Source: Bacteroidales bacterium (GTDB taxonomy: Bacteria; Bacteroidota; Bacteroidia; Bacteroidales; CAIWKO01). Taken from it: DNA of 62,857 nt. This document shows, piece after piece, positions 317 to 62,857 of the stretch. Both the position numbers and the translations under genes were made by a program. The stretch is taken from NCBI GenBank assembly GCA_035389045.1, contig DAOORA010000021.1, positions 1 through 62,857 of the forward strand, written 5' to 3'. Position 1 is the first letter of the stretch. Each line of letters opens with the position of its first letter. The notes beneath the pieces were generated by a model. It saw only the letters and a program-made list of their open reading frames with translations, was not told where the DNA came from and made no database searches.

Positions 317-567
317 TAGCGCTGTTTTATGTTTTTGACAAATTTATAAAAATTCACTAAAAAAATGAAAATATCTTAATAAAACTGAACACATAGTTGA
401 CTTGCAAGCCTTCAGCTATCGCAAATATATCCGGTTTTCCGGTATAACTTGCTGTTTCTATCAGTTAATTTCTGGCTCAGTAAAGTATAAACGGGGGACA
501 GAGAACTAATTTCTTCCGGAGAATCAAACATCCCCAGGAAGCTACCTCAAAATCCTGTCAGACAGAT

Positions 568-1572: not shown

Positions 1573-1634
1573 TTATACCCCCGGAAATAATTATATAAAA
1601 ATATTTATGTTCATTATGGTTTAATTGTAGCAGA

Positions 1635-2051: not shown

Positions 2052-2150
2052 AATAGATCTATGCCAATTAAATAATTTTCTGCCAACGGATTGCTTCCGG
2101 ACAAATTTACGATTTAATAAAGTAAAAATATCATGATTTGATTTTAATTG

Positions 2151-43229: not shown

Positions 43230-46200
43230 TTAACGGATAAGATTAACGATGCCTTTGAAAACATGATTTCTGCCGCTGCGGTCCGTCACATTTATCATGT
43301 ATACAAAGGTATACGGCGCTGTTGAGGTGTAGTCGTAATGATTATTGAAAGTTCCGTTCCAGCCTTCGTTAATATCCTCTGTATAGAAAATCTCACGGCC
43401 CCACCTGTCGTATATTGCCATGTAGTAGTTTTTTGTATCGCAGCCTTCTCCAACGGGTAAGAATATATTATTTTTCTCGTCACCATTAGGTGTAAAACTA
43501 TTCGGGATCCAGAAAACAAACGACTGATAAATATAAATATATTTCTGAACGGTATCCATGCAGCCATAAGCATCGGTAACAACAAGCGTGACCAGATACG
43601 AGCCTGTGTCGGAGTATATATGTCTCACCTGCCTTCCCGTATCGGATGCCTGGTCGCCAAAATCCCAGACCCAAAGTACATTGTCGCCTGTGGACAGGTC
43701 GTAGAAAAGCACTTCACCTTCATCAATGACCTTGTATTCCGGTCGGGTATAAAACGTGGCCACAGGAACCGGCTCGTTGTCGACGGTCGCGTTTGCGGCG
43801 CCGGTACAGCCGTTGTATTCCACTGTGACGGTATATGTCCCGGCGGCAAGCCCGGTGGCGGTTTGGGTATATTGAGGCGGAACCGTGTTCCATTCATACG
43901 TACAACCGGTATCCTGAATTAAAACGCTAGCAGTACCATTGTCAAAGCCACAAACAGCATTGGTTACCGAAGTGCTGACATTTAATGAGGGATAAACATG
44001 TATTTCGATGGATGCTGATCCGGTGCATCCGTTACTGTTGGCAGTTACAACATAAGTGGTTGTTGTTGACGGGTACACCGTGACCACAGAATCTGTGCTG
44101 GGGGGCAGGGTATTCCACAGATAAGATTGACCTCCGGTGGCGGATAGTTGAAGCGGGCTGCCCTGACAGACCGGGGTATTTCCGCTTATGACGACGTCCG
44201 GCACCGGAAATACCGGAACATTGACGTTGCCTTCAGCGGTACATCCTGATGCAGAGGTACCTGTAACGATATAGCTTGTGGTAATAACCGGATTTACAGA
44301 TAGAGAGCTTCCTGTAGCGCCTGTGTTCCAAACATAGGATGCCGCCCCGGCAGCTGAAAGCGCAGCGGATTGCCCTTCGCATAAGGTGGCCGGAGAAGCT
44401 GTTACAGTGATTACCGGTAAGGGGTGCACCACTACGTTGACATAAGCGCTGGCGGAGCAGCCTGCTGCTGAGGTTCCTGTTACGACATAGTTTGCGGAAC
44501 CGGCCGGGCTTACGCTGATGGAGACGCCGGTTGCTCCTGTGTTCCAGGAGTAGGTGGATGCACCGGCAGCTGTGAGGGTGGTATTTTGTCCTGAACAGAT
44601 CTCAGCTGGTGAAGCTGTTGCAGATACAGCTGGCAGTGGGTTCACCGTCACGCTGACGGAAGCACTGGAAGAACATCCTGCCGACGTGGTTCCCGTCACC
44701 GAATACGTTGTTGATGTGGCCGGGCTTACAGTGATGGGAGAGCCTGTGGCTCCTGTATTCCAGGAGTACGATGATGCGCCGCCTGCCGAGAGGGAAGCGC
44801 TTTGCCCGGAACATACAGTAGCAGGGGCGGCTGTTGCGGTGATTGCCGGTATCGGATTTACCGTTACGCTGACAGAGACGGTTGAGGAACAACCCGATGA
44901 AGTAGTCCCTGTTACTGCATAAGTTGTAGAGGAAGTCGGGCTTACCGTTATGCTTGCCCCTGTGGCTCCTGTATTCCACAAATATAATGATGCCCCGCTT
45001 GCTGAAAGCGTAGTGCTTTGCCCCGGGCATATGGCAGCGGGTGAAGCGGAAGCAGTTACCGAAGGTAGGGGCGTGACTGTGACACTGACGCTAGCACTGG
45101 AAGAGCAGCCTGCCGTTGTTGTTCCCGTGACGGAATATGTCGTTGAAGTGGTCGGGCTGACTGTGACAGGTGTGCCTGTGGCTCCTGTATTCCATAAATA
45201 GGAAGATGCGCCGCCTGCCGACAGCGAGGTGCTTTGTCCTGTACATATAGCCGCCGGGGAGGCCGAGGCCGTCACCGCTGGCAGTGGATTAACTGTAACG
45301 CTGACGGTAGCGGTGGAAGAGCAGCCTGCCACCGTGGTCCCTGTCACAGTATAGGTTGTTGAAGTGGTCGGGCTGACGGTGATGGGTGTTCCGGTGCTTC
45401 CTGTATTCCATGAGTATGATGTTGCCCCGCCTGCCGAAAGGGACGTGTTCTGACCCGTGCATATGGCAGCAGGTGTGGCCAAGGCCGTCACCACCGGCAT
45501 GGGATTCATGGTCACGCTGACGGTAGCGGTGGAAGAGCAGCCTGCCGCCGTGGTTCCTGTTACCGTATAGGTGGTTGCCGTGGTGGGGTTGACCGTGACC
45601 GATGATCCGGTTGCTCCCGTATTCCAGGAGTATGATGTTGCCCCGCCTGCCGAAAGGGATGTGTTCTGCCCCGGGCATATGGCAGCAGGTGTGGCTGAGG
45701 CCGTAACCACAGGCATGGGATTCATAGTCACGCTGACGGTTGCAGCGGAAGAGCAGCCTGCCGACGTGGTTCCCGTTACGGTATAGGTAGTTGCTGTAGT
45801 CGGGTTGACAGTGATTGGCGAACCTGTGGCTCCTGTATTCCATGAATAAGTGGATGCACCGCTTGCTGAAAGCGAGGTGCTCTGTCCGGGACATACAGCA
45901 GCAGGGGAGGCGGAGGCCGTCACTGTGGGCTGGGGATTTACCGTCACATTCGCTGAGGCGGAAGCGCTGCACCCGGAACTGTTACTCACGGTGACACTGT
46001 AAGTGCCGCTGTGTGAGTTGTTTACATTGGTAATTACCGGGTTTTGCTGACTGCTGGTGAAGCCGTTGGGACCAGACCATTGGTATTGTGCTGCCGGGGA
46101 AACGTTCAGATGAAGGTCATTACCGGTGCATAAAGGGGTGGTATAGGATGCTGTTGTAGCAGGAAGGGTGGTTACAAAGACCTGTACCGTATCCCATGCG

Positions 46201-47069
46201 GATTCGCACCAGGGATTGGTCACATGGACCACATAAGTATTCAGGCCGGCAACCTGTGCAGGGTCGGTGACATTTTGCGAGCTGTAATTGGTTCCGCTAT
46301 TCAGATGGGTCCACTGGAACTGATACACGGAAGTGTTAGCGGCATTGGTCAGCGCACAGGCGAGGGTGTAGCTATCGCCCTGGCATATGGTATCAGGCGC
46401 TGTCGCTGCAATCTGGGCATATTCAAGCGAGATGGTAGGATGTTTTGTGGGATCGGCAAATTCTTTGGTAGCGAAGGTGACTCTCCGGTAGGTAACTCCT
46501 TCGCCTACCTGTCGCATCAGAATGCCGTAATTGGGTATGCCGTTGCACATCCAGTCATACACAAGATTTGAAATGTCTACATGATAATCCTGAGTGGAGG
46601 GGTTCGGGACAGAAGAAGGCACCGTTATCTGCCCTGTGGTGGTGGTGGCCGGCTGATTGGCCCATGTGACTCCCAACTCCGTCCAGGCTGCGGTAATCCT
46701 TTGAATATAAAACTGATTATCGGTGGCAGAGCCTGTGTACCAGTCCGTTTCAGTGCTTCCAGTTGGATAGTAAAGGTTAAGCGTGGCTCTGTTATCATAC
46801 AGGCGGTGGGCAGCGGCAGGAATATTGAGATTGAAATTTGCCACACACCTTATGGTCCCCTGCCCGCAACCCAGGGCAACCCATGTCCAGACACTGGCCA
46901 GCATAATGGTTGACGAACCGTAATTGGTGGTCTGCCAGGTGGTACAGGGGCCTGTATTATTTATTTCTATCAACGCGTCTGCAGAACTGGGAACAACAAC
47001 TGTTTGGGCAAATGAGAAAAAAACAGAAAAAAACAAAGAAAAACAATACACAGTGGCTTTTTTTCTCAT
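43230..47069 (-). CDS. DNRLRE-like domain + eight 72-aa Ig-like repeats + PKD + T9SS type B CTD surface protein
   Basis: WTE..VTW.NQP; repeats AAICPGQ.TSLSAGGA.SYSWNTGATG; WDFGD; IPNSFTPNGD..N. Confidence 0.88.
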   Translation of the reverse strand: MRKKATVYCFSLFFSVFFSFAQTVVVPSSADALIEINNTGPCTTWQTTNYGSSTIMLASVWTWVALGCGQGTIRCVANFNLNIPAAAHRLYDNRATLNLYYPTGSTETDWYTGSATDNQFYIQRITAAWTELGVTWANQPATTTTGQITVPSSVPNPSTQDYHVDISNLVYDWMCNGIPNYGILMRQVGEGVTYRRVTFATKEFADPTKHPTISLEYAQIAATAPDTICQGDSYTLACALTNAANTSVYQFQWTHLNSGTNYSSQNVTDPAQVAGLNTYVVHVTNPWCESAWDTVQVFVTTLPATTASYTTPLCTGNDLHLNVSPAAQYQWSGPNGFTSSQQNPVITNVNNSHSGTYSVTVSNSSGCSASASANVTVNPQPTVTASASPAAVCPGQSTSLSASGASTYSWNTGATGSPITVNPTTATTYTVTGTTSAGCSSAATVSVTMNPMPVVTASATPAAICPGQNTSLSAGGATSYSWNTGATGSSVTVNPTTATTYTVTGTTAAGCSSTATVSVTMNPMPVVTALATPAAICTGQNTSLSAGGATSYSWNTGSTGTPITVSPTTSTTYTVTGTTVAGCSSTATVSVTVNPLPAVTASASPAAICTGQSTSLSAGGASSYLWNTGATGTPVTVSPTTSTTYSVTGTTTAGCSSSASVSVTVTPLPSVTASASPAAICPGQSTTLSASGASLYLWNTGATGASITVSPTSSTTYAVTGTTSSGCSSTVSVSVTVNPIPAITATAAPATVCSGQSASLSAGGASSYSWNTGATGSPITVSPATSTTYSVTGTTSAGCSSSASVSVTVNPLPAVSATASPAEICSGQNTTLTAAGASTYSWNTGATGVSISVSPAGSANYVVTGTSAAGCSASAYVNVVVHPLPVITVTASPATLCEGQSAALSAAGAASYVWNTGATGSSLSVNPVITTSYIVTGTSASGCTAEGNVNVPVFPVPDVVISGNTPVCQGSPLQLSATGGQSYLWNTLPPSTDSVVTVYPSTTTTYVVTANSNGCTGSASIEIHVYPSLNVSTSVTNAVCGFDNGTASVLIQDTGCTYEWNTVPPQYTQTATGLAAGTYTVTVEYNGCTGAANATVDNEPVPVATFYTRPEYKVIDEGEVLFYDLSTGDNVLWVWDFGDQASDTGRQVRHIYSDTGSYLVTLVVTDAYGCMDTVQKYIYIYQSFVFWIPNSFTPNGDEKNNIFLPVGEGCDTKNYYMAIYDRWGREIFYTEDINEGWNGTFNNHYDYTSTAPYTFVYMINVTDRSGRNHVFKGIVNLIR

Positions 47070-47410: not shown

Positions 47411-49273
47411 TTACCTCAATATCGTGAGGGTTCCACTAAATTTATCTCCATTATCGGTGTTCAGGGTATAAAAATATACGCCTTCGGCCAGACCTTTCCC
47501 ATTCCAGTCGTTCTGATAATCATCACTATGGAAGATCACCTTTCCCCACCGGTTGAAAATGTATAGCGTGGAACCGGGAAAGTATTCCAGGTCTTTGATA
47601 TACAGCATATCATTTTTACCATCATCATTGGGTGTAATGATGTTAGGTATCACGATCTGTGGTATATAGCATGATATCGTAGATCCCGGGACAAAGACAT
47701 CTGTATTTCCGGTGCAGCCGTTTGAATCAGTGACGGTGACGGAATAGCTACCTGTTACTATTCCTGTAATGGTATCGCCGACATGTCCGTCGTTCCAGAC
47801 ATAGGTGTATGGGCTCACTCCGTTTACTGAGGTGGCAACCGCATAGCCGTCGCCTTTGCCGATGCATGTTTCATTTACCACCGCCACTGATGGCAAGGGC
47901 AAAGGCCATGTGACCACAGTGATTTTTGCGGTATCGCTGCATCCGAATGTATTGGTGACCGTGACAAAATAAGTGGAGGTATCCGTTACTATTACCGGTT
48001 CGGTTGAGGACGACCCGCCGGTACTCCATGAATATGCCGGCCCTCCGGAAGCGGAAAGTAAGACCGTGCTTCCCAGGCAGGCCAGGGTGTCACCGGTGAT
48101 AGCTGCAATAGGTTTGGCATGTATTGTAACATTCAGGGTCATCACCGTATCGCAGCCCAGGCCATTGCTGACCGTGGCTGTATAAATTCCGCTGTTGGAC
48201 GTCAGTACTCCGGCTATATCAGGGTTGGGCAGGTTGCTGTTAAATCCGTTGGGTCCGGTCCACTGGTAAAAGAGTCCCCCTGAAGCGGTCAGCAAAAGGG
48301 TATCTTCCTCACAGACAGGTGAATTATATGAAGCTGTTGCATTAGGCCTGGCAGCAACGTATACTTCGACTGTATCGCTGGCGGTCTGACACCAGGGATT
48401 GGAAACCTGAACCACATAAGTGTTCATTCCGGGAACCTGTGCGGGATCAGTGACGTTCTGCGTATTATATGTGTTACCAGTGTTCAGGTGAGTCCACAGG
48501 AACTGGTAAGAAGCAGGATTGTAGGCGTTGTTGAGCGAGCAGGATAGGGTGTAGTTGCTTCCTTCGCAGATGCTGTCAGGCGCTGTAGCGGCGATCTCTG
48601 CGTATTCAAGTGTCAGCGTGGGATGTTTTGCGGGGTCTGCAAATTCTTTGGTAGCAAAGGTGACCCTCCGGTAAGTAACCCCTTCACCAACCTGGCGTAG
48701 CATCAGCCCGTAATTTGGTGTGCTGCCGCATATCCAGTCATATACCAATGTGGAGATGTCAACGTGATAATCCTGGGTGGATGGGTTGGGAGTAGAAGAA
48801 GGTACGGTAATTTGTCCGGTAGTGGTGGTGGCTGGTTGATTATCCCAGGTCACGGCCATCTCTGTCCAAGGAGCTGTGATGCGTTGTATATAGAACTGAT
48901 TGTCGGTAGCGGTACCTGTATACCAGTCCGTTTCAGTGCTTCCGGTGGGGAAGAACAGGTTCAGCACCGCCCTGTTATCATACAGACGCTGTGGATCGGC
49001 AGGAATGTTCAGGTTGAAATTCACCACGGAACGTATCGTTCCCTGCCCGCAGCCCAGGGCATTCCATGTCCAGACACTGGCCAGCATAATGGTTGACGAA
49101 CCGTAATTGGTTGTCTGCCATGTTAAACAAGGCCCCGACACATTGATCTCGATCAAAGCATCAGCTGTAGTGGGAAGTACAATGGTTTGTGCAGTGGAAA
49201 AAAAAGCAAAGGACAGCAGAAAACTCATTAACAGAATTGTAGGTCTTATCTTCCTTGTTTGATGATTAAACAT
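47411..49273 (-). CDS. Paralogous DNRLRE-like + Ig-like/SprB-like + T9SS type B CTD protein
   Basis: N-terminal ~300 aa closely match 43230-47069; IPNIITPNDDGKND...FNRWG. Confidence 0.88.
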   Translation of the reverse strand: MFNHQTRKIRPTILLMSFLLSFAFFSTAQTIVLPTTADALIEINVSGPCLTWQTTNYGSSTIMLASVWTWNALGCGQGTIRSVVNFNLNIPADPQRLYDNRAVLNLFFPTGSTETDWYTGTATDNQFYIQRITAPWTEMAVTWDNQPATTTTGQITVPSSTPNPSTQDYHVDISTLVYDWICGSTPNYGLMLRQVGEGVTYRRVTFATKEFADPAKHPTLTLEYAEIAATAPDSICEGSNYTLSCSLNNAYNPASYQFLWTHLNTGNTYNTQNVTDPAQVPGMNTYVVQVSNPWCQTASDTVEVYVAARPNATASYNSPVCEEDTLLLTASGGLFYQWTGPNGFNSNLPNPDIAGVLTSNSGIYTATVSNGLGCDTVMTLNVTIHAKPIAAITGDTLACLGSTVLLSASGGPAYSWSTGGSSSTEPVIVTDTSTYFVTVTNTFGCSDTAKITVVTWPLPLPSVAVVNETCIGKGDGYAVATSVNGVSPYTYVWNDGHVGDTITGIVTGSYSVTVTDSNGCTGNTDVFVPGSTISCYIPQIVIPNIITPNDDGKNDMLYIKDLEYFPGSTLYIFNRWGKVIFHSDDYQNDWNGKGLAEGVYFYTLNTDNGDKFSGTLTILR

Positions 49274-49474: not shown

Positions 49475-50098
49475 TCATCTGTCGATAGCCCTGAATCCGC
49501 ATTTTTCAGCCAGTGGATAGTCTTCGTATATCCATTGAACTATTTTAGATGCTTTATTGGTTTTTACCGCCAGGAAATTGTTCTGTTCGTCCTGAAAAAG
49601 CATACCATTGCGGTCTTTTTTCTTTCTTCCTTTTAATTTATATTCGAGGAACAAAAGATCGGTGATGGTACCTTCGAGCCATGGTGTTTCTTTATCGTAT
49701 CCGGCGACCCAGCTGATTCTGGAGCCGCAACTGTCCATAAACTCCTCGAGTTTTTTGCCGACTTCGCAGGCACCGATCAGAATACCTTTGTTGTTGTGTC
49801 CGCCAGGGCCTTTTTTCATAGTTGATTTTGCCACCTTGTTCATGTTGATGCCTTTGATATATCCTTTGAGCCTACCCCCCTGGCCGTGGCCGGCTATGTA
49901 ACATATCTCCATCTCTTTGTGCCAGATGAAACGTTCCAGCCACATGGTGAGATCACTGGTATTATAATACATCCTGTAGCTAAGCGAGATATTGTTCAGA
50001 TTGGCCCAGCCCTGCATGAACAGACGGACACTTTGCTCGTTGCTCAGGTCCTGCGACCAGGGACACTCCAGTACCAGCAAACCTAATTTTTTTTTCAT
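49475..50098 (-). CDS. Caspase/CHAT-like (clan CD; DUF6642-like) protein
   Basis: LLVLECPW, CYIAGHG His, ILIGAC Cys, WVAGY....PW. Confidence 0.65.
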   Translation of the reverse strand: MKKKLGLLVLECPWSQDLSNEQSVRLFMQGWANLNNISLSYRMYYNTSDLTMWLERFIWHKEMEICYIAGHGQGGRLKGYIKGINMNKVAKSTMKKGPGGHNNKGILIGACEVGKKLEEFMDSCGSRISWVAGYDKETPWLEGTITDLLFLEYKLKGRKKKDRNGMLFQDEQNNFLAVKTNKASKIVQWIYEDYPLAEKCGFRAIDR

Positions 50099-50179
50099 GA
50101 ATATAACTTTAAACCAACTGTAAAAAAATCCGGCAGGAATATGATAAGAATAAAAATATGTAAATATTAAATATTATTA

Positions 50180-50464
50180 TCACTTGTTGTTCACATCCTG
50201 TTCCGTTTTATTCTCGTCGCCTTCAACAGTCATTTTATTATCCTTAGATGTAAAGGTTGGGTTGTTCACATCCTGTTGGGTGATGTTTTTGTTACCTTTT
50301 ACAGTAAGTGTATTGCTTTTGTCTTTCTGTTCCTTGTTTTTGTCAAACGACAGTTTGAATTTCTTCCAGTCAAAACTGACCGTACCGCTTTTGGCGACGA
50401 TGATCACTACAACAATGACGATCAGCCCGCCGGCAATCCAGAGTACTAATGGTGAAATACTCAT
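50180..50464 (-). CDS. Small single-TM protein with two C-terminal amyloid-like pseudo-repeats
   Basis: Hydrophobic residues 6-24; NTLTVKGNKNITQQDVNN and NKMTVEGDENKTEQDVNN. Confidence 0.75.
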   Translation of the reverse strand: MSISPLVLWIAGGLIVIVVVIIVAKSGTVSFDWKKFKLSFDKNKEQKDKSNTLTVKGNKNITQQDVNNPTFTSKDNKMTVEGDENKTEQDVNNK

Positions 50465-50521
50465 AATTTTTAGTTTTTAGATTAATAAAAGTTTGTATAT
50501 CAAATAGTAAATATCAAATAA

Positions 50522-52819
50522 TTATTTATTCATATTTTCCTGATCACGGATTTTCTGTTTTATACTTTCATTGATTTTTACCACCGTATCAATATAGGGG
50601 TGGCCTTTTGGCAGTAACTTCTGATAAACCTCCACAGCTTTATCAGACAATTCCAGTGCCTGCTCATACTCGCCCAGCGCTTCAAGTACTAAAGCGAGGT
50701 TGGAATAGCTCATAGCGGTATCCGGGTGATCTTTTTTATAATTGTTTTCAAAGACCTTCACCGCATGTTCAAGTTCTGTTTTTGCTCCCTGAACATCGCG
50801 TAGTTTGAATAATACGGTAGCCAGGTTCAAACCGGCCTTTGCGGTATATGGATGATCTTCACCATAGTTCTTTTTCATGCTGCGGGTACATTTCTCCAGC
50901 AGTATTTTTGCACCTTCAAAATCGTTCATCTCCCTGAGCAATAAGGCGAGGTTGGAATAATGGATGGCCGTTGCGGGATGATCTTTTCCATGGTTTTTTT
51001 CATCACTGACGATCACTTTTCTGTAAAGTTCTGCTGCAAGCTCTTTTTCGCCTGTGTATTTAAGCGCTATGGCCAGGTTTGCATAATGATTAGCCGTTAT
51101 GGGGTGCTCCTGTCCAAAATTCTTTTCATCAGATTGTACCGATTTTTGCATGAAATATTTTGCACCTTCATAATCAGCGAGGTCGAGCAGCACCATGGCC
51201 AGGTTGGAATAACTCACAGCTGTTTCATGGTGTTCTGGTCCAAAGTTTTTCTCGTCGCTGGCCACCACCTTTTCCAGAAGTATCTTTGCTTGTGCTGGAT
51301 TACCAATATCTTTTAAGGCTACAGCCAGCAGGTTCTGCAGTTCTGAAATCTTTTTCTCGTCTTCATTCAGCAGGTTTTCCTGTGTTTCCATTACCGCCAG
51401 CAAAGACTTTCCGTAAGGTATCCACGGAAATCTTGTTGCCGGATTATCTTTGGTCTGGTCGGTGTTTAACCTGGCGCTGATCTGTTCTGCCAGATAGCCG
51501 ACATCCTGCAGGCTTACCGGTATCTGCATGAGCAGCACTCCGCCAATGATATGGTGCATTTTGTAACTGTCGTTCAGCGGATGTTTCATTAGCCAGCCTT
51601 TTCTTACCAACCGGTTCAGAAAGAGCGGGAGCTTCTTGTTCTCCTTGTCTTCCAGTATCAGTTCTTTAAGCAGATCATAGCCAATAAATGCTGAAGGCAT
51701 ACAGGCAAAATACTTCATCACACGGATCTCTTCCTGCTCAAGCCGGCTTAAATTAAAAAAAGAACTCAGGTAGGTGCCGATGCGGTAAATGGTGTTATCC
51801 GAATGATACATATCCGGAATTTCGGTGTCCAGGTTTAAGGCAAGTGCATTGCTCAGTTCCTCAAAGGTGTAATCGATATTTTCTGCCGTTTTTGCCAGGA
51901 TCTCGATCGTAAGGGTATGGTATTCTACCGACCTGACCAATGCTGCAATCTGTTCACCGGTTAATTTAGCGCGTGAGTAATGCATTTTAAAGAGCTGCAT
52001 AGCATCATCATGGGGTAACGGATCTGTCTGCATCAGGCTAAAACCGTTGAGATGCAGCTGCGAGGTAATCAGGACATGCCACAGCGGCTGTTTGGGCAAA
52101 TTGTTCCTGTGAGTTTCCATCGTAATGCCGGCATTATCAATAATCAGAAGGCAGGGGCCTTCATCAAAAGTCTTTAACTTACGCATGATCTCGCTGAATA
52201 TTTCAGCAGGCTTTTCCAGCTCACTACTGATCGAAAGATTATTCAATAATGCCTGATCCCGTGCAAAATCGGGAATGATATCATCCGAAACCTGTTGCAC
52301 CCACACTATGTGTTTATAATGGTCCCAGAAATTGTGCATATAATACTGCGCAAGGGTGGATTTTCCGATGCCTTCCATGCCATGAATGACCACCATCTGC
52401 CTGCCGTCCCACAACATTTCATGCAAGGCTTTCACTTCGGCAATTCTGCCGATCAGGCTGTCCTGTTCAACAAAGGGGATATTACCGCTGAGTTCTTTGG
52501 GGAGCTTACCAGCGGCATCATAATGATAATGGATTTCATCGCCTATCCTTACGGATGTTGCATTGATATTACCCTGAACCAGATTTTTTTGGATGCCTGT
52601 TCCCTGTATGAGGTTTTTGAAAAGTTCCGTGAATTTATCCGATTGTTCTTTTACTATCTGTTGTATCACCGCAATTTGCTCATTGTTGAGTTGCTGCAGC
52701 TTTTCAAGAACATCGGGATCATGGGCGTTTATAGTGATAGTGGAATTATTGCTGTTCTGGACAACGATATTTCCGGCTCCGTCTATTTTGACATCATTTT
52801 TATTTCCAAAGATACCCAT
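50522..52819 (-). CDS. STAND/NB-ARC NTPase with C-terminal TPRs (NLR-like) and N-terminal amyloid-like motifs
   Basis: Walker A GMEGIGKST, Walker B LLIIDN, VLITS, YKMH; 42-aa TPRs G..HP.TA..Y.NLA. Confidence 0.9.
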   Translation of the reverse strand: MGIFGNKNDVKIDGAGNIVVQNSNNSTITINAHDPDVLEKLQQLNNEQIAVIQQIVKEQSDKFTELFKNLIQGTGIQKNLVQGNINATSVRIGDEIHYHYDAAGKLPKELSGNIPFVEQDSLIGRIAEVKALHEMLWDGRQMVVIHGMEGIGKSTLAQYYMHNFWDHYKHIVWVQQVSDDIIPDFARDQALLNNLSISSELEKPAEIFSEIMRKLKTFDEGPCLLIIDNAGITMETHRNNLPKQPLWHVLITSQLHLNGFSLMQTDPLPHDDAMQLFKMHYSRAKLTGEQIAALVRSVEYHTLTIEILAKTAENIDYTFEELSNALALNLDTEIPDMYHSDNTIYRIGTYLSSFFNLSRLEQEEIRVMKYFACMPSAFIGYDLLKELILEDKENKKLPLFLNRLVRKGWLMKHPLNDSYKMHHIIGGVLLMQIPVSLQDVGYLAEQISARLNTDQTKDNPATRFPWIPYGKSLLAVMETQENLLNEDEKKISELQNLLAVALKDIGNPAQAKILLEKVVASDEKNFGPEHHETAVSYSNLAMVLLDLADYEGAKYFMQKSVQSDEKNFGQEHPITANHYANLAIALKYTGEKELAAELYRKVIVSDEKNHGKDHPATAIHYSNLALLLREMNDFEGAKILLEKCTRSMKKNYGEDHPYTAKAGLNLATVLFKLRDVQGAKTELEHAVKVFENNYKKDHPDTAMSYSNLALVLEALGEYEQALELSDKAVEVYQKLLPKGHPYIDTVVKINESIKQKIRDQENMNK

Positions 52820-53005
52820 ATCTTAATTGTTTGGGTTTTCAATTAGATCATAAGGTCTTGTTAGTGAATATCTTCAGTATTTTTTCTCATGACCGGTGAG
52901 GACATCATAATGTTTGATTCTTGTTAAATTACAACATTATTTTTAATTATTAAACAAAAATAATATTGTTTTTATTATGAGTGTATTTATTTTCAAAAAC
53001 ATTTT

Positions 53006-53087: not shown

Positions 53088-53160
53088 GCGGTAGTAGCTC
53101 AGATGGTAGAGCATCAGCTTCCCAAGCTGAGGGTCGTGGGTTCGAGCCCCATTTACCGCT
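53088..53160 (+). tRNA. tRNA-Gly(CCC)
   Basis: Acceptor GCGGTAG/TTACCGC, D-arm, anticodon loop TTCCCAA, GGTTCGAG T-loop. Confidence 0.95.
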
Positions 53161-53198
53161 CAAAAAAAACCGGTTCAAAAATGGGCCGGTTTTTTATT

Positions 53199-55191: not shown

Positions 55192-55280
55192 GGAGAGGTG
55201 GCAGAGTGGTCGATTGCGGCGGTCTCGAAAACCGTTGTTCGCCGTAAGGCGGACCGGGGGTTCGAATCCCCCCTTCTCCG
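55192..55280 (+). tRNA. tRNA-Ser(CGA)
   Basis: GGAGAGG/CTTCTCC acceptor, anticodon loop CTCGAAA, long variable arm, GGTTCGAATC; TAGTTTTG promoter element at 55171. Confidence 0.95.
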
Positions 55281-55374
55281 CTGAAACATTAAAATCCGGC
55301 TTTAGCCGGTTTTTTTGTTTTCGGGATATGCTGATCGTGGTTGAATTTGTGGTTATGCCATTATTGAAACTCTA

Positions 55375-56268
55375 TTATTGATGCTCACTGAATTGGAGTC
55401 GGTGTCTGTCTAAATAATCAAAATTATATTGACTTAAATTGTTAATCTTTTCAGTGCCCGTAACACCAATTTTTTCATATGCTTTAAATTCTATGGCGTT
55501 CGATAATATAATTTTTCCTGAGTTTTCAAAACTGATAAGGTGTCTGTCAAATAAAGCATCATAAGTCGGGGATAAAAGTATTCCATTGTGCACGTCAAGC
55601 CGTTCATTATCATCTGAATCAGACCAGGGAACAATGTGTGAAGCAATTAATACATCAAGCTTATCAAAACCAGTGACAGCACATTTATACTCCCACCTAT
55701 GTATAATTCGTTTTCTATAAGCCCCTTGTCCTACACGTGAGGTCACTAAGCCGGACCTCTCTGTTACGTTGGGTGGAGAAATGCCGAGCTCCAGCAGGGG
55801 TTCTGCTACCATTAGTTTTTGATTAAACAAATCTGGTTGTACGGGCACATAGGCTCCCTTTCTTTTGAAAAAGAATTTAATCCCTACACGAAGGTTCCCA
55901 CCTGTGTCATGGGTTTCAAAATAATCAAAATCGAATATTTCCACTTCAGATTTAAACCGGACGTATCCTTTGGTCTCGCTCTCAAAAAGAAAAACCCGTT
56001 TACCGTGATTAAGATGTTCTCTTAAAGCAAGATTACCTTTTGTGAATTGCATATCACCTGATTGACCTTCTCCGGTATATGTAAAAATATTAGGATTATC
56101 CCAGCCATCAGCATAACCATGTTGTTTGCCGGATTTTCCAGTAAATATAAAGATATATGGGTATTTTGAAGAAGGACAAATACCACCTTGCCAATTCCCA
56201 CCGTAAATAGCATGAATATCATTTCTTCTATTATAGATATGTTCAGGAATGAATGGTATTTGATTCAC
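55375..56268 (-). CDS. SRA-like + HNH endonuclease (putative type IV modification-dependent restriction)
   Basis: IH..YGG..QGGI, HGY.DGW, YTGEGQ.GDM...GN; HNH CAVTG...ASHIVPW...NGILL...D.LFD. Confidence 0.85.
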   Translation of the reverse strand: MNQIPFIPEHIYNRRNDIHAIYGGNWQGGICPSSKYPYIFIFTGKSGKQHGYADGWDNPNIFTYTGEGQSGDMQFTKGNLALREHLNHGKRVFLFESETKGYVRFKSEVEIFDFDYFETHDTGGNLRVGIKFFFKRKGAYVPVQPDLFNQKLMVAEPLLELGISPPNVTERSGLVTSRVGQGAYRKRIIHRWEYKCAVTGFDKLDVLIASHIVPWSDSDDNERLDVHNGILLSPTYDALFDRHLISFENSGKIILSNAIEFKAYEKIGVTGTEKINNLSQYNFDYLDRHRLQFSEHQ

Positions 56269-56282
56269 TGGTTAGTTACTTT

Positions 56283-59264
56283 TCAATAATACTCTTTTAT
56301 ATACTCATACGCCCGGTTAAACAAATCTTCGTCTTTAATCTGGTACTTTGTCCACAGGACTTTTCTGAGTTCTCGTTTTACTTCACGTTCCCCTACTGTG
56401 GAATGTTGCCAGCCATCAAATCGAACATAGCGAACGATCTCATCAATGTCATTTACAATTCGCTCAACTATGGCAGGGGTTGTATCCGTTTTAAGTTCAA
56501 GGAAAAGCTCGGTGAGAGCGGCTTTTGCAGATTTCTGTACTTCCAGCGGCTCCGATTGCTTTTCGGCCTGGAGTGTTTCTTTTGCAATCTGGCAAAGTTC
56601 TTTAATGAATTCAATTGAGTTGATCAATCCTCTTTCAGCCTTATCCCGTAATTCTTCCAGTCGTTCGCTAAGTTTTTTGAACGTTGGATGATTTCCATGT
56701 TTGTGTAATCTGCTGATGAGTATTTTCATTATTTTCTCAGCTTGCTTCGGGTCTTTCTTGTTCATCAATTCATCCAGCACTTCCGCATCGAGTATGACTT
56801 CTTCCATTTCATGATTGATTCCAGTTACATGGATGTGCTCATGGATCAAAGCAGTTGTCTGAGCTCCCAGTGCGTGCCATAATAAACGGCCATTATCATC
56901 TGAGGCCGGCTTAACGGAGGTGTAAACCTGGGACAGCCACCTGTAATTTTTTTGGTACTGGTTAAGTAGGTCATCCGGGGACAAGGCTTCCCAAAGCTTT
57001 GAAAGGCTGCTGAAGTCTTTCGCAAACGCATCTCTTTTCTGATTGGTGTTGATACAATCCTGTGCTTTCTGTAAACCTTCAAAACCCGCAATAGTCCTGT
57101 CAATGCCGGGAAAATGTGCAATACATTTATCCATCCATTCAGGTAGCTTATCTTTCAACTCCTGCAAATTTGTTATGACGGCTTTTACACTTTCTTCGTC
57201 AAATGCAAGAGCTTTCGCTGTATCATCAAATACTCCGAAATAATCTACAATTCTGCCAAAGGTCTTATTCGGAAAAAGCCTGTTGGTTCTGCATATTGCC
57301 TGCAACAGCGTATGGTCTTTAAGAGATTTGTCCAGATACATTGTCTGTAAAATCGGCGAATCAAAGCCGGTAAGAAGTTTAGCCGTAACAATCAGAAATT
57401 TGAGGGGTGATTCAGGATCATTGAATTTTTCAACCACTTTTTCCTGTTTATCCTTGTCCATTCCCCATTTCTGCTTGAATTCGAGTTCATCATTTGCAGA
57501 TGTGCTGATTACAACTTCACTCGCATCAGGTGAAAGCAGTTTGTCAAGCTCATCTTTATAAAGGATGCAGGCAAATCTGTCCGGGGTTACAATCATAGCC
57601 TTTAATCCTTCCGGCTCCACATGCTGCTTAAAGTGTTCAATAATATCCTCACAAATAGTTTTCACTCGTTCAGGTGATTTCAGGAATACCGACATTTTCG
57701 CCGCCTTTTGACTTAGCTTGTTTCTGTCGTCATCACTCAGATCATTGGCCATCTCTTTGAACGCAATATCCAGGCATTCTTTATCAATGTGATAGTCGGG
57801 GAGGCGTGGCTCAAAATGGAGAGGCAATGTGGCATTGTCCCTGATACTTTCCTGAAAGGTGTACCTGCTCATATACCCATCCGTGTCTTCATCTGCTCCA
57901 AAAGCCCAGAACGTATTCTTATCTGCCCGGTTGATGGGTGTTCCGGTGAGACCAAATAAAAATGAGTTCGGCAAAGCGGCTCTCATTTTTCTTCCAAGAT
58001 CACCTTCCTGCGTTCTGTGGGCTTCATCCACCATTACAATGATATTCTCCCTGGTATTCATATTGGGATAGGATTCCTTGAATTTATGAATCATTGTGAT
58101 AATGATTTTTCTTGAATCCTGCTCGAGTAGTTTATGAAGTTCCCTGATACTATCAGTTGTTACCATGTTCGGGACTTCAGCGGTATTGAATGTTGCAGCA
58201 ATTTGCGTATCCAGATCAACCCGATCAACTACAATGATTACGGTGGGATTATTCAGAGCCTGCTGTTTGCGGAGCTTTTGTGCCGCAAATAACATCAATA
58301 ATGATTTGCCGGAACCCTGAAAATGCCAGATAAGTCCTTTCTTAATCCTGCCGTCTTTCACTCGTTCAACGATAGCGTTGGCGCCCTCATATTGCTGGTA
58401 ACGACACACAACTTTTATCTTTTTCTTTTTGGTGTTTGTGGCATAAACGGTGAAGAATTGGAGGATGTCAAGCAGTGTTGACGGCTTTAACAGATGGGTA
58501 AGTTGTTTGGCCACATCATCCAGGCTAAGCAGGTGGCTTATTTCGTCCTTTTCATGTTCTAAACGCCAGGGAGCCCAAAACTCTAAAGGTGTCCTTACGG
58601 CCCCGATAAAAATCTCTTTCCCTTCTGTTGCAAAGGAAAACACATTAGGAACAAATAGCTGCGGTATAGTGTTCTCATAGATTACGTTGATATCATGTGC
58701 AGCATCGTACCAGCTTATGGCAGGGCGTACAGGTGTTTTGGCTTCGCCAACAACAAGAGGAATACCGTTCACAAACATAACGATGTCAGGTATTTTAACT
58801 TCCCTGACTTTCATTTTAAACTGATTAGTGAGAAGAAAAGAATTCTGAGCTAAATCTTCATAATCGATCAACTTTACAATAACATGTTCATTGTTTTTGC
58901 CAATAGGTAAAGACACTTCATTGCGCAGCCACTTTGAAAACTCCTCATTAGCCCTTACAAGGCCAACATTGTGCACGGTAATTAGTATTGCACGGAGTTT
59001 ATGAATAACATCATCAGCTTTATCCGGATTTGCTTGAATTTGAGGGTTCAGTTTGCAAAGCGCCTTTTTTAATTCAGATTCTAAAAGGACATCGGTTGTA
59101 TCTCTCGGAAGTAAATCAGGCTGAATATAATTCCATTTTGCTGCATCTCCATAAGCAACCGGTTCTTCATTCACAGTTCCGGAAGCCGTTACATTATTCA
59201 GGTTAACACCGGTTAATTGGTGAATCAGAAAATGTTCGACACTATTTTGTTCGTTGAAAGACAT
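56283..59264 (-). CDS. hsdR: Type I restriction enzyme R subunit
   Basis: PDIVMFVNGIPLVVGEAK, WHFQGSGKS, DEAHR, TGTP, LLTGFD, LLQAICRTNR. Confidence 0.97.
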   Translation of the reverse strand: MSFNEQNSVEHFLIHQLTGVNLNNVTASGTVNEEPVAYGDAAKWNYIQPDLLPRDTTDVLLESELKKALCKLNPQIQANPDKADDVIHKLRAILITVHNVGLVRANEEFSKWLRNEVSLPIGKNNEHVIVKLIDYEDLAQNSFLLTNQFKMKVREVKIPDIVMFVNGIPLVVGEAKTPVRPAISWYDAAHDINVIYENTIPQLFVPNVFSFATEGKEIFIGAVRTPLEFWAPWRLEHEKDEISHLLSLDDVAKQLTHLLKPSTLLDILQFFTVYATNTKKKKIKVVCRYQQYEGANAIVERVKDGRIKKGLIWHFQGSGKSLLMLFAAQKLRKQQALNNPTVIIVVDRVDLDTQIAATFNTAEVPNMVTTDSIRELHKLLEQDSRKIIITMIHKFKESYPNMNTRENIIVMVDEAHRTQEGDLGRKMRAALPNSFLFGLTGTPINRADKNTFWAFGADEDTDGYMSRYTFQESIRDNATLPLHFEPRLPDYHIDKECLDIAFKEMANDLSDDDRNKLSQKAAKMSVFLKSPERVKTICEDIIEHFKQHVEPEGLKAMIVTPDRFACILYKDELDKLLSPDASEVVISTSANDELEFKQKWGMDKDKQEKVVEKFNDPESPLKFLIVTAKLLTGFDSPILQTMYLDKSLKDHTLLQAICRTNRLFPNKTFGRIVDYFGVFDDTAKALAFDEESVKAVITNLQELKDKLPEWMDKCIAHFPGIDRTIAGFEGLQKAQDCINTNQKRDAFAKDFSSLSKLWEALSPDDLLNQYQKNYRWLSQVYTSVKPASDDNGRLLWHALGAQTTALIHEHIHVTGINHEMEEVILDAEVLDELMNKKDPKQAEKIMKILISRLHKHGNHPTFKKLSERLEELRDKAERGLINSIEFIKELCQIAKETLQAEKQSEPLEVQKSAKAALTELFLELKTDTTPAIVERIVNDIDEIVRYVRFDGWQHSTVGEREVKRELRKVLWTKYQIKDEDLFNRAYEYIKEYY

Positions 59265-59768
59265 TTATTCTATAATGATTTCTGCATCAAACTGAATTCT
59301 CATGTTATATTTTGAACTAAAATATTGACGTTGTTCAGCGTTTGAGTTCTGAAATGCAGGGAACTGATGTTTTCTATTAGCTACAATTGCTTTACGTTTT
59401 TTAAAATGGTAATAGATATCGGGTATTTCTTCAATCATTTTTTTTGCAATATTTTCTATCTGGGATAGTCCTTCAGATTGCCACGAATCTCTTTTATTCT
59501 TTAATTCTACAAATAAAAGCGTTGAATTATACGAAAGCATGCAATCACAACGACTATCCATTTCCCCATTTTCTCTATAAACGTCAATACAGTTGTCGAT
59601 GGCAGTAAAACTAATCGTCCTGCATTCAGTATTAAGAATGGTTGCATTCCATGAGGGCTCATCAGTTAGTTTTATTTTTACTGGAGTTTTGTCCTCCGCA
59701 TCATACAAGCCGAATTTCTTTTCGCTTGTTGTTTTTTGACAAACAGTCTTAAAGAAATCTATGCTCAT
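59265..59768 (-). CDS. Hypothetical protein, PD-(D/E)xK-like, partner of AAA ATPase
   Basis: RCDCML...LFVELK...LSQI; 4-bp overlap with the ATPase gene. Confidence 0.65.
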   Translation of the reverse strand: MSIDFFKTVCQKTTSEKKFGLYDAEDKTPVKIKLTDEPSWNATILNTECRTISFTAIDNCIDVYRENGEMDSRCDCMLSYNSTLLFVELKNKRDSWQSEGLSQIENIAKKMIEEIPDIYYHFKKRKAIVANRKHQFPAFQNSNAEQRQYFSSKYNMRIQFDAEIIIE

Positions 59769-60997
59769 AATCCTTCTTCAATGTCTAATAGTGAATCAAA
59801 TAAGAGGTTACCGTCTGCAAGTGATTGGTTCAAATAGTTTTTATCCAATGGAATGCCTTCGAAATTTCCAAGTTTCTTGATTGTACCATTACTCTCATCC
59901 AATTCGTAAATGGCAATTTCTTTAGGAGAAATAATTGACTTTATTGGGACTATCTCATTTAGCTTAATTGATTCTTCAGTGTTTTTTACTTTTTTTTCTA
60001 CAGTGAAGGCTTTTATCGCTAATGTCAAATAATTTATCAAATAGGGACTATGAGTTGTCATTATTAATTTGTTTCCTTCGTTCATGTTATTAAATTCAAG
60101 CAAACTGTTCAGCATTTGTCTTTGTGATGCAGGAAACAAATTTTGTTCGGGTTCTTCAATAATATTAACAAATAATCCATTACGATATTTGTTGGGTATT
60201 GTTTTTAATAAAAATCTCTTCACTTCGTCAGGCATGGCTGCATCCTTTATAATCTCCTCAACTTCTTTTTGCATTTTCTTTTGAGCCTCATAACTCATTT
60301 CATTTATAGTCGGATCTTTTTCTTTTTTAATTGAGTTTGCAAGATTTTTTGAAACTAAAAAAAGTGGCACAAAAGATTGAAACCCGCTCGAAGTTTCGGA
60401 TAATTTTAGTTTATATCCACTTCCAATTACATTAGCAGTTTCATTAAGTTTATCAAAATAAAATTTAGCTTTACCAATCGGCAATTCAAGACTATCTGAT
60501 AGTTCATTTTGAGAACGTTCCATCTCTTCAATAAAAGTAAAGAGTGATTTTGGAAGTTCTGGTATTTTTCGGAGATTACGTAGTTTAACAGCACTTGAAA
60601 AATTCCTCTCAGCAGGTACATACATTATTTTCGGAAGGACATATTGCTTACTTATCCTTCCAACTATTTTAAATCTTTCTTTTTTATAAGTGAATGTAAA
60701 TGACTCTCCCTCAAATTCTATACTCGTACTGCCATCCTTTTGAAAGTAATTTAATAAGTTGTGATAAGCACAAAGGTTTTCAAATGTATTTTTATATTCA
60801 ATTTTTTTTCGTAGCAAATCTCCTCTTACCAACGCCTTTTCAATCCATGTCAGAGTCGAAATCAACTTTGCCACAGTGCTTTTGCCCGAGCCCTGATTCC
60901 CTATAAAAACAGTAACCTTTTTCACATCAATCCAGCCATCATTATCAATGCATCCTTTTTTGACAGGTCCAAAATTTTTTATTTTTATTCTGCTCAT
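59765..60997 (-). CDS. AAA_15/AAA_21-type (ABC-like) ATPase
   Basis: IKNFGP, GNQGSGKST, YVPAER, SSGFQS, IEEPEQNLFP, TTHSPY. Confidence 0.9.
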   Translation of the reverse strand: MSRIKIKNFGPVKKGCIDNDGWIDVKKVTVFIGNQGSGKSTVAKLISTLTWIEKALVRGDLLRKKIEYKNTFENLCAYHNLLNYFQKDGSTSIEFEGESFTFTYKKERFKIVGRISKQYVLPKIMYVPAERNFSSAVKLRNLRKIPELPKSLFTFIEEMERSQNELSDSLELPIGKAKFYFDKLNETANVIGSGYKLKLSETSSGFQSFVPLFLVSKNLANSIKKEKDPTINEMSYEAQKKMQKEVEEIIKDAAMPDEVKRFLLKTIPNKYRNGLFVNIIEEPEQNLFPASQRQMLNSLLEFNNMNEGNKLIMTTHSPYLINYLTLAIKAFTVEKKVKNTEESIKLNEIVPIKSIISPKEIAIYELDESNGTIKKLGNFEGIPLDKNYLNQSLADGNLLFDSLLDIEEGL

Positions 60998-61029
60998 TTT
61001 GTAAAACTTTATAATACAAATTTAATCAT

Positions 61030-62214
61030 TTACCCCAAAATTTCATTCAGCAATTTCTGCTTCAAATTCTTCAGGGTTTGCTTTTGTTGTTTTAGCTGCT
61101 TCATTGTAAGGTCAATTTGTGCAAACACTTCCAGGATTTTTTCCTGCGTTTTTATATCCGGTATACACACTTCCATTTCTGCTAAATCCTTCCATTTTGT
61201 TCTTGGCGAAAGCGAGCCTGCAGAAGTACTAACCGCATGATAAATAAATGCTTCCGATGAAATGTAATAAGGTAATAACCCTTGAAGTAAAGATTTCCCC
61301 TTACTTCTGATTACGATAATGTCCCCGGAACAAATTCCATCAAAATCTGCCACTGCAACCTTTTTTAAGTAAGCTCTGCGTTTGCCGAACAATACATCAC
61401 CTTTGGCAAATCGTTTAGTAAAAGTTGTTCCGTTTGAAACTAATCCGAATCCCTGAATCTGGAAATTCTCAGGTTCAATATTTTCTAAACCAATAAATCG
61501 TTCAACTTCTTTATTGTGCTCCGGATATTTTTTATCACATTCTGCAATGGCTTCAAAGGTGGCGGTTTTACAGTTGTTGTCATTCAATAAGTTACCGAAC
61601 TCAGGTGTGGGCTTCATTAAACCATCAACTAAATTTTTTTGTAGTGATTTTAAATTCCGTTCCTGCCCATCCACCTGCTCAATGACATTCTCAATACTCT
61701 GAAATAATTCTGCAATTTGTTTTTGCTCTTCGAGAGGGGGAAGGGGAATTTGGAAATCATAAAAACCACTAATTTTCAAATGCTTTACATTAGTGCCTTG
61801 TGAAAATTGCTTTATAAATTTTCTGTATTCATTTGATTGAAGAAAGCAATAACATAAAAAAGGTATTATGTCATCTTTACTAAAATCAATTTTCCCTAAA
61901 TCAGCTGAGTAAGCTGTTTTTTCATTTTGTGTAATTAATAAGGGAGAACCTATTAATTCAGACGTTGGGGTTAAATCGGTTAATGCGATTAAAATATCAT
62001 CTTTATTTGTCAGTTGTTTCTCTTTAATAGCACCTAAAAAATATTTAAAATCTTTATCCTTTGAGTTATCACCATTTCTTTTTACAGATTTTAAATTGTA
62101 AAATGGAACTCCAACACCATCTCCTAATTCACTACTTGAATAAGTCAAACCTCTTTGGAGAATACATATTTCACCAATTCTTATTCTTTCCCATTTATCT
62201 TTTCTCAACTTCAT
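61030..62214 (-). CDS. hsdS: Type I R-M specificity subunit
   Basis: Two TRDs; IPLPPLEEQKQI and IPD..TQ..I conserved helices. Confidence 0.93.
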   Translation of the reverse strand: MKLRKDKWERIRIGEICILQRGLTYSSSELGDGVGVPFYNLKSVKRNGDNSKDKDFKYFLGAIKEKQLTNKDDILIALTDLTPTSELIGSPLLITQNEKTAYSADLGKIDFSKDDIIPFLCYCFLQSNEYRKFIKQFSQGTNVKHLKISGFYDFQIPLPPLEEQKQIAELFQSIENVIEQVDGQERNLKSLQKNLVDGLMKPTPEFGNLLNDNNCKTATFEAIAECDKKYPEHNKEVERFIGLENIEPENFQIQGFGLVSNGTTFTKRFAKGDVLFGKRRAYLKKVAVADFDGICSGDIIVIRSKGKSLLQGLLPYYISSEAFIYHAVSTSAGSLSPRTKWKDLAEMEVCIPDIKTQEKILEVFAQIDLTMKQLKQQKQTLKNLKQKLLNEILG

Positions 62215-62857
62215 ATTTCTATCCCAATATTTTTAAGTTGAGTAAAAAGCTCGTCAATGGAAGCGTTTATTTGCTGTTGTCCAGCTTTTACATCGGCAAT
62301 CAGGTCTTCGGTGTTGTGTTCAATGGTATTGGAAGCTTGCTTTACGTAGAGTTGTATGCTTAAGTTGCCGTTGTTGTCTAATACTTCTTTGTGGTTTATT
62401 ACTTTTGCAAAACCTTCGGCATCTTTGAAATTCCAAAAAGCATCACTTATCTTTTTTATGTGCTGAGGTTCCAGCCATGCATTAGTGCGGTCAATCCGCA
62501 ATTCATCTTTAGCATCAATAAAAAGTATTTTGCCTTTTCTTTCTTTTGGCTTTTTCATGTTGCACACAAGCAAACAGCTTTCCATGCTGCTGTTGTAAAA
62601 AAGATTCTTTCCTAAACCAATCACAGCATCCACATAATCCTGTTCTATCATTTTTTTTCGTATCTCACTTTCGGCATCTCTAAAAAGAACACCATGCGGC
62701 CAAAGAACAACACAACGCCCGGTATCGGGTTTAAGGCTTTTCATTATATGCTGCTGGAAGGCATAATCAGCACATCCTTGCGGCGGCGTACCCCAGATAT
62801 TACGGCCAAAAGGATCGTTCATCCATTTATTCCTGTTCCAACGCTTAACGCTGTATG
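62211..62857 (-). CDS. hsdM: Type I R-M methyltransferase subunit (5' part outside window)
   Basis: PP...ADYAF.QH, PHGVLFR, DAVIGL..NLFY, ILFIDA, NLSI..YV. Confidence 0.95.
   Translation of the reverse strand, partial: YSVKRWNRNKWMNDPFGRNIWGTPPQGCADYAFQQHIMKSLKPDTGRCVVLWPHGVLFRDAESEIRKKMIEQDYVDAVIGLGKNLFYNSSMESCLLVCNMKKPKERKGKILFIDAKDELRIDRTNAWLEPQHIKKISDAFWNFKDAEGFAKVINHKEVLDNNGNLSIQLYVKQASNTIEHNTEDLIADVKAGQQQINASIDELFTQLKNIGIEI

Follow-up and report, generated by a model that had tools for sequence, protein, structure and literature searches.

Beyond its established roles in fungi and animals, amyloid signaling was recently shown to act in phage defense of Escherichia coli. In the HET-S/NWD2 pair of Podospora anserina, signaling relies on the HET-s-related amyloid motif (HRAM), a β-solenoid with Asn/Gln ladders and opposite charges between its repeats. 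To our knowledge, every described membrane-targeting effector of amyloid signaling keeps its killing helix within a soluble helical domain. Here, we analyze two adjacent genes on contig DAOORA010000021.1 of a Bacteroidales bacterium (assembly GCA_035389045.1); the whole stretch analyzed, 62,857 nucleotides in length, is referred to as the window. The genes encode a 94-amino acid membrane protein (50180..50464, minus strand), designated the effector, and a 765-amino acid sensor (50522..52819, minus strand) that resembles NOD-like receptors (NLRs). We consider it likely that the pair constitutes a two-gene cell-death module of the type represented by HET-s and by bacterial amyloid signaling sequences (BASS), in which the effector is unusually small and membrane-anchored.

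According to Dyrka et al. (2020; bioRxiv 10.1101/2020.01.06.895854), BASS motifs are common to effectors with a Bell domain and to the NLRs encoded next to them. The same report describes a screen that was seeded on the C-termini of Bell domains, effectors in which two or three pseudo-repeats face a single one in the NLR, and CHAT domains among the BASS-linked effectors. Bell and Babybell domains are soluble helical domains of 80–100 amino acids that carry an N-terminal signature of the MEPIS type and a central Gly in helix 1; in Bab, four helices cup the hydrophobic helix 1 (Ibarlosa et al. 2024; bioRxiv 10.1101/2024.11.07.622273). In E. coli, the 109-amino acid Bab and the TPR protein Agp together give abortive infection through the motif BASS11, as reported there.

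An earlier reading of the window, made from its letters alone (the original prediction), had described the 94-amino acid protein as a minimal effector in which a transmembrane (TM) helix precedes two charge-complementary pseudo-repeats of the HET-s kind. The open reading frame (ORF) indeed encodes a membrane helix, a short β-hairpin-like linker, and two pseudo-repeats, a layout that recurs in ten small relatives. The membrane helix spans residues 6–24 (LVLWIAGGLIVIVVVIIVA; 50393..50449, minus strand). It has a mean Kyte-Doolittle hydropathy of 3.2, and the AlphaFold2 model, computed from an 11-row alignment, contains a helix at residues 5–23 with predicted local distance difference test (pLDDT) values of 81–84. 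Residues 27–40 (50345..50386, minus strand) form a segment of alternating hydrophobic residues that includes FDWKKFKLSF, which had been called amphipathic-looking. That description holds, but the periodicity is that of a β-strand: at 170 degrees the hydrophobic moment reaches 1.30, as against 0.09 at 100 degrees. The alternation also occurs in the relatives. The label of a minimal effector fits as well, inasmuch as the protein contains neither a Bell nor a HeLo domain.

Reversed topology would place the repeats in the periplasm, out of reach of the NLR, a possibility that had been named as fatal to the proposal. The charges flanking the helix predict the opposite. The N-terminal flank of the effector lacks Lys and Arg, whereas the 15 residues that follow the helix contain four. 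Across all 11 family members, the N-terminal flank has zero or one Lys/Arg and is usually acidic, while the 15 post-helix residues have two to five. Positively charged residues flanking a membrane helix tend to remain on the cytoplasmic side (the positive-inside rule). By this rule, the effector is predicted to adopt an N-out/C-in topology that leaves its repeats in the cytoplasm and hence reachable by the NLR.

The two pseudo-repeats comprise residues 50–68 (SNTLTVKGNKNITQQDVNN; 50261..50317, minus strand) and 75–93 (DNKMTVEGDENKTEQDVNN; 50186..50242, minus strand). Each is 19 amino acids long, and the linker between their cores measures 6–7 amino acids. Self-alignment of the effector reproduces the offset of 25 residues that had been noticed between residues 51–68 and 76–93; the alignment is ungapped, with 11 of 18 positions identical. 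Over 21 residues, this offset yields a BLOSUM62 score of 67, and the runner-up offset scores 33. Composition-preserving shuffles of residues 41–94 gave a mean 18-mer self-score of 23.4 (standard deviation 5.1, maximum 59), and none of 2000 reached the observed value of 62. The alignment of Lys in the first repeat with Glu in the second, at K56/E81 and K59/E84, is present as described, as are the shared Asn and Gln positions (N51/N76, N60/N85, Q64/Q89, N67/N92, and N68/N93). Three residues in each repeat, N51, G57, and Q64 in the first and N76, G82, and Q89 in the second, are invariant in all 11 family members.

The NLR lies upstream of the effector on the same strand, separated by a gap of 57 bp, so that the two genes are adjacent and collinear. 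Pfam matches identify an NB-ARC NTPase domain at residues 129–217 and a TPR array (TPR_10/TPR_12) at residues ~476–743; the Walker A sequence reads GMEGIGKST. No other effector domain was matched in the protein by Pfam, and it is the sole PF00931 match in the 4.46-Mb genome. Its N-terminus contains two strand-prone motifs that precede the NTPase. Motif A (residues 7–32, KNDVKIDGAGNIVVQNSNNSTITINA; 52724..52801, minus strand), also designated r0, is a single copy of the motif repeated in the effector. Motif B (residues 77–100, QKNLVQGNINATSVRIGDEIHYHY; 52520..52591, minus strand) is conserved in all five NLR homologs.

We identified motif A with a position matrix that was built from the 22 effector repeats only. 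The best score within the NLR falls at residue 7 (KNDVKIDGAGNIVVQNS; 8.9 bits), and the next position scores −0.4. Among 1,306,151 positions in 3146 genome ORFs of at least 150 amino acids, a score of at least 8.9 bits is found at eight other places, none of them within 30 residues of the N-terminus in any of the 3146 ORFs. Both effector repeats and the NLR contain the consensus N-x-h-x-h-x-G-x-x-N-x-h-x-Q. A pattern search of all frames of the genome (N.[ILVM].[ILVM].G..[NH].[ILVT].Q) returned five matches, of which two lie in the effector, one in the NLR, and two in junk frames of 50–57 codons. Alignment of NLR residues 7–32 with repeat 1 plus its linker gives 9 identities in 26 positions and extends over a further N-N-x-T-h-T stretch. 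Motif A is kept in the NLR homologs. The presence of one motif copy at the N-terminus of the NLR, which the original prediction had not specified, is at the level of sequence the key confirming feature.

The pairing of a small repeat-bearing membrane protein with a motif-bearing sensor recurs in other genomes. In searches with the first 125 residues of the NLR, the protein collection gave two relatives, and genomes of species gave four loci. One of these loci (L002), from a Bacteroidales metagenome-assembled genome (MAG), encodes, in order, an 880-amino acid NLR homolog, a 95-amino acid effector homolog (54% identity), and a second NLR; the N-termini of the two NLRs score 31.0 and 22.5 bits against the effector-derived matrix. 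An effector profile was run on ~400 genomes each of the phylum, order, and class and produced 16 further loci: six with a small repeat-bearing ORF, nine that represent membrane-helix noise, and one ambiguous case (L021). In six of the six repeat-bearing loci, the adjoining large ORF bears the motif. It begins at residue 5 in five loci and lies behind two membrane helices of the NLR in the sixth (L018). By sample, 12 of 401 genomes matched for the phylum at E ≤ 0.01, and beyond the window's own genome the matrix confirmed five loci only, all from a single family (f25). Two of 401 genomes matched for the order, with L018 confirmed, and six of 401 for the class, where L021 remained ambiguous and none was clearly confirmed.

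The five loci from one family of the phylum (L006–L009 and L015) encode effectors of 102–120 amino acids with two TM helices. Their partners open with W-N-H-I-R-I-E-G-N-N-N-L-V-L-Q-D at residue 5, and those in L006 and L009 contain TPR repeats and no NTPase domain according to Pfam. In L018, which belongs to the same order as the window, the NB-ARC/TPR homolog (2-2111, minus strand) has two N-terminal membrane helices of its own, followed by the motif. Upstream lies a 127-amino acid soluble protein whose 5′ end is open; its C-terminal ~40 residues match the NLR and include the near-identical stretch GNITNQTHYGTGDNV.

The motifs occur in further arrangements at two other loci. A homologous NLR from a Caldilineaceae MAG of the Chloroflexota (L004; 3953-6219) has motif B at its start and no motif A. 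The 151-amino acid protein encoded downstream has MEPIS at residues 6–10, and its C-terminal end matches motif B. In Sphingobacterium thermophilum (L005; 3986-4979, plus strand), a 166-amino acid non-NLR protein opens with motif A and has an uncharacterized C-terminal domain in place of the NTPase, and the C-terminal end of the adjacent 129-amino acid protein, ...GKINNSTITINK, corresponds to the second half of the NLR-type motif. Judging by these loci, the motifs behave as exchangeable connectors. No partner for motif B turned up in a motif search of the window's own genome (96% complete).

The distribution of the family is patchy. In two genomes of the same genus and two of the same family (96–98% complete), no match was obtained with either the effector profile or the N-terminus of the NLR. 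Such a distribution suits an accessory defense module. A search of metagenome contigs with a 3-row effector alignment returned only a 100% identical copy, and a scan of viral contigs returned no effector relative.

An exhaustive phmmer search of 1.84 billion representative proteins with the effector as query gave 12 hits. These include the ten small relatives, each 78–116 amino acids in length and each with the helix and two repeats. The 997-amino acid protein P0007, a repetitive sequence that matches query residues 21–74, was set aside as compositional. A word-index protein search recovered the effector itself only (1 of 1 candidate). In the alignment of the 11 members, the Asn, Gly, and Gln residues are invariant in both repeats, the Asp nearly so, and hydrophobic residues alternate. 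BASS-type pairs are marked by a motif of ~20–25 amino acids that is enriched in Asn, Gln, Gly, Val, and Ile and has predicted β propensity. The family shows this trait, with strands placed in both repeats and in motif A at moderate or low confidence.

When the two repeats of each member are laid in register, opposite charges face each other in 30 pairs and like charges in 14. Ten of the 14 like-charge pairs involve the conserved Asp at position 16. In registers shifted by 1–4 residues, opposite and like pairs are about equal in number. When the variable positions were permuted 5000 times, the observed excess was never reached. Position 3 is occupied in both polarities, with Lys facing an acid four times and Glu facing a base three times; the close pair P0011 and P0012 is among these cases. 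All 11 members have N/N or H/H at position 11. Homologs without the complementary charges would have counted against the proposal; instead, opposite charges are enriched in register across the family. They are not fixed at the two positions that had been singled out, which are opposite in 6 and 3 of the 11 members.

In the AlphaFold2 model of the effector, each repeat forms a pair of strands (residues 49–56/61–65 and 74–81/86–90; pLDDT 64–75), and strands of low confidence are placed at residues 27–32 and 35–40. In the model of the NLR N-terminus (mean pLDDT 53), motif A contains strands at residues 9–13, 17–21, and 27–30, helices occupy residues 37–71, and motif B is unmodelled. Both models are compatible with a β-arch motif, short of proof. 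A complex prediction for NLR residues 1–40 and effector residues 45–94 scored 0.06 against a mark of 0.32 and, being without controls, speaks neither for nor against binding. The effector has no match in PADLOC or NCBIfam, and no Pfam match at E ≤ 0.01 indicated homology to HET-s, HRAM, or HeLo. Its look-alikes in the ESM Atlas all score <0.9, and a sequence-profile search of the PDB returned membrane-helix noise only (E ≥ 0.34). PHROGs yielded no holin and one family of unknown function (E 0.008). A sub-threshold Pfam match to FUN14 was taken as membrane-helix noise.

These observations suggest a model in which the NB-ARC/TPR protein acts as the sensor and presents one strand-turn-strand motif of ~18 residues (r0) at its N-terminus. 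The 94-amino acid protein would be a single-pass anchor in the inner membrane whose cytoplasmic tail holds the two repeats, r1 and r2. A trigger, probably phage infection, would cause the NLR to oligomerize, and the r0 segments thereby gathered could form a cross-β template. This template would recruit effector tails, each of which may fold as two rungs, with r1 stacked upon r2 and with Asn/Gln ladders and inter-rung salt bridges as the stabilizing contacts. In cross-β geometry, two rungs rise by about 9.5 Å. Because each molecule would add two rungs, the membrane helices would become aligned at about helix-packing distance. The resulting helix array, together with the amphipathic hairpin of residues 27–40, could then breach or depolarize the membrane and abort the infection. 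Amyloid formation, the β-solenoid fold, the clustering of helices, the direction of signaling, the membrane damage, and the nature of the trigger are all inferred. With no HeLo domain in the effector, activation cannot run through the unfolding of a globular domain.

The HET-s-like interpretation has been borne out in its sequence-level predictions, namely the motif in the NLR, the recurrence of the pair, the invariance of Asn, Gly, and Gln, the charge enrichment, and the predicted cytoplasmic location of the repeats. Several observations weigh against it. The closest homolog of the effector, P0005, has K/K and G/A at the two charge positions of the original prediction, and among the five two-helix effectors the counts are 7 opposite against 4 like-charge pairs, without a clear signal. 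In 10 of 11 members, Asp at position 16 lies over another Asp, an arrangement that would be unfavorable in a dry stack. The permutation and pair counts overstate independence, because the family members are kin. Nine of the ten relatives are metagenomic proteins without genomic context. At 8.9 bits, the NLR in the window matches the motif less well than any other partner (16–31 bits). The monomer model of the effector reaches a mean pLDDT of only 65 and includes no confident solenoid, and Foldseek found nothing in the PDB at E ≤ 0.001 for this model. Finally, a helix that is permanently inserted raises the question of how toxicity is controlled before activation.

The alternative that survives best, which we nonetheless regard as unlikely, is that the shared motif serves as a homotypic docking tag. 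Effector and NLR would then form a finite hetero-oligomer through β-strand addition, and the NLR would be tethered or sequestered at the membrane or the small complex would gate a channel. Motif sharing, gene adjacency, and conservation fit a finite assembly as well as an open-ended one. Moreover, the fusion of membrane helices and motif to the NLR in L018 indicates that a membrane location is an acceptable state for the sensor in this family. Against this alternative stand the two repeats of the effector as opposed to one in the NLR, with charges that pair in register between r1 and r2. This layout is the specific signature of templated two-rung stacking described for HET-s and for some BASS effectors. 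The richness of the motif in Asn, Gln, and Gly, its alternating hydrophobic residues, and the lack of another effector domain in the NLR likewise argue for templated amyloid signaling rather than docking.

Downstream of the effector, a third gene on the same strand (49475..50098, minus strand) begins 81 bp past the effector's stop codon and encodes a 207-amino acid protein whose membership in the system is uncertain. Language-model look-alikes of this protein are clusters annotated as DUF6642 or "putative CHAT" (scores 0.96–0.98), which we treat as a lead only. The protein has no match in Pfam, NCBIfam, or PADLOC, and motifs A and B are both absent from it; besides its own cluster, its family comprises 14 relatives of 204–225 amino acids. 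When the sequence was read by eye, a His...Cys pair with caspase-like spacing (IAGHG ... GACEVG) was observed. The position of this gene, its look-alikes, and the CHAT domains listed among BASS-linked effectors by Dyrka et al. would accommodate a scheme in which the small membrane protein regulates the NLR or serves as its decoy, with the true output coming from a different protein, for instance the 207-amino acid candidate. We judge this scheme improbable: in addition to the missing motifs and Pfam support, the locus L002 keeps the small TM protein and not the 207-amino acid gene, and the loci with two-helix effectors consist of a small TM protein and a sensor only (within the 2.5–3.3 kb fetched). 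That the likeness between effector and NLR is a chance product of low-complexity, Asn-rich sequence, with the small ORF serving an unrelated membrane function, is hardly credible; the effector tail is indeed biased (10 Lys and 10 Asn among 54 residues) and the NLR match amounts to only 8.9 bits, but such a match is rare genome-wide, the shuffle controls run contrary, and the pairing recurs in L002 and in six of six independent loci with repeat-bearing small ORFs.

It is tempting to go beyond a two-gene amyloid-signaling module and to ask whether the effector represents a new class of amyloid-gated executioner, a proposition that we put forward tentatively and to which we give less credence than to the module itself. 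The pore-lining helix of HeLo and Bell domains would here be cut down to a bare, permanently inserted anchor, harmless as a monomer and lethal once a sensor-templated, two-rung cross-β stack lines up the anchors, in the manner of an amyloid-triggered holin. The module would also be combinatorial, given that the same motif joins anchors with one or two TM helices to sensors of the NB-ARC/TPR and of the TPR-only type as well as to the membrane-helix-bearing NLR of L018. Motif B is present in the window's NLR and is paired with a MEPIS effector in the Chloroflexota genome, from which it follows that one sensor might address two effector classes.

If the proposed mechanism is true, an effector made up of only an anchor and two copies of the motif would demonstrate that a switch needs nothing beyond templated stacking, and no smaller system would exist for studies of membrane damage by cross-β assembly. 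The in-register charge swaps point to concrete residues for such work. With this family, amyloid-signaling systems would reach into the Bacteroidota of engineered ecosystems (the runs carry the labels activated sludge and anaerobic digester), and its existence suggests that a screen starting from Bell domains overlooks some of the diversity.

The surroundings of the module include other genes of interest. Matches to the family libraries identify a type I restriction-modification system (56283-62855, minus strand) composed of R (993 amino acids), S (394 amino acids), and M, which is cut by the end of the window. An AAA_15/AAA_21 ATPase of 410 amino acids and a 167-amino acid protein without a family are inserted between R and S. 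An HNH/SRA-like nuclease (55375-56268, minus strand) was identified in the same manner, and all of these genes (restriction system, ATPase, and nuclease) lie within 3–12 kb of the module. A tRNA-Gly(CCC) (53088-53161, plus strand) is located 270 bp upstream of the NLR, and a tRNA-Ser(CGA) lies at 55192-55281 (plus strand). Enclosed by these two tRNA genes is the gene for a GDSL-lipase-like secreted protein that has a type IX sorting tail; the three genes separate the NLR module from the restriction cluster. On the other side of the module, two paralogous large secreted proteins of 1279 and 620 amino acids are encoded at 43230-47069 and 47411-49273 (both minus strand). Their N-terminal domains of ~230 amino acids are near-identical; the longer protein contains many tandem Ser/Thr-rich repeats of ~75 amino acids, and the GC content of its region is locally raised to 0.51–0.59. 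The GC content of the module itself is not distinct from that of its surroundings. A sigma-70 promoter scan of the region gave background levels, and terminator-like hits fall inside genes. Contigs from two metatranscriptome runs match the region with 100% identity at a depth of 2–5 (50055-50205, 50256-50491, 51263-51413, 49751-49910, and 52629-52900); these matches do not demonstrate transcription, since DNA can occur in such libraries.

How the pair relates to BASS systems was judged by layout and composition rather than by the consensus logos of BASS1–11; one supplementary file searched for four motif strings gave no match. As in the BASS pairs of Dyrka et al., the two genes are collinear neighbors, and a short, strand-prone motif rich in Asn, Gln, and Gly lies at the C-terminus of the effector and at the N-terminus of the NB-ARC/TPR protein. 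The effector differs from those of BASS/Bell pairs in that a true membrane helix and ~25 linker residues, in place of a Bell domain, stand ahead of the repeats. These ~25 residues between helix 6–24 and repeat 1 are predicted as strand or coil, which does not accord with a Bell or Babybell fold. The host here is of the Bacteroidota type, whereas the pairs of Dyrka et al. come mostly from Actinobacteria and Cyanobacteria. In the effector family, the N-terminus follows the pattern M-E-[ILM]-x-P...W-I-x-G, and residue 12 is Gly (G11 in Bab); the stretch is too short to score and contains no literal MEPIS.

Compared with Bab and Agp as described by Ibarlosa et al., the similarities are the very small effector, its N-terminal hydrophobic helix and C-terminal amyloid motif, the N-terminal location of the motif in the sensor, and the setting in a defense island. 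Agp (TPR-GreA/B-C-PIN) is a non-NLR sensor, as are the TPR-only partners in L006–L009 and L015. Bab has a soluble fold of 80 amino acids in which helix 1 is sheathed and is described with one motif copy; the effector here has two copies and no sheath, and its helix is hydrophobic enough for constant insertion. Full-text searches of the literature and term searches within individual papers found no description of an effector that consists solely of a membrane anchor and motif copies.

The parallel with HET-S/NWD2 lies in the two pseudo-repeats of the effector, the single one (r0) of the NLR, the identical Asn/Gln ladder residues and complementary charges of the two repeats, and an N-terminal, membrane-targeting helix as the putative killing part. 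HET-s repeats measure 21 amino acids and are joined by a longer loop, whereas the core here is 18–19 amino acids and the linker 6–7. Like holins and the membrane effectors of CBASS/Pycsar-type systems, the effector is a small membrane protein with a charged cytoplasmic tail that would damage the membrane through triggered self-association. It differs from these in matching no holin PHROG and no PADLOC model and in its proposed trigger, templated cross-β stacking in place of a critical concentration or a nucleotide signal. On sequence grounds, the pair is best filed as one of the known BASS/HET-s-like kind, in which the putative novelty resides in the minimal, membrane-anchored architecture of the effector.

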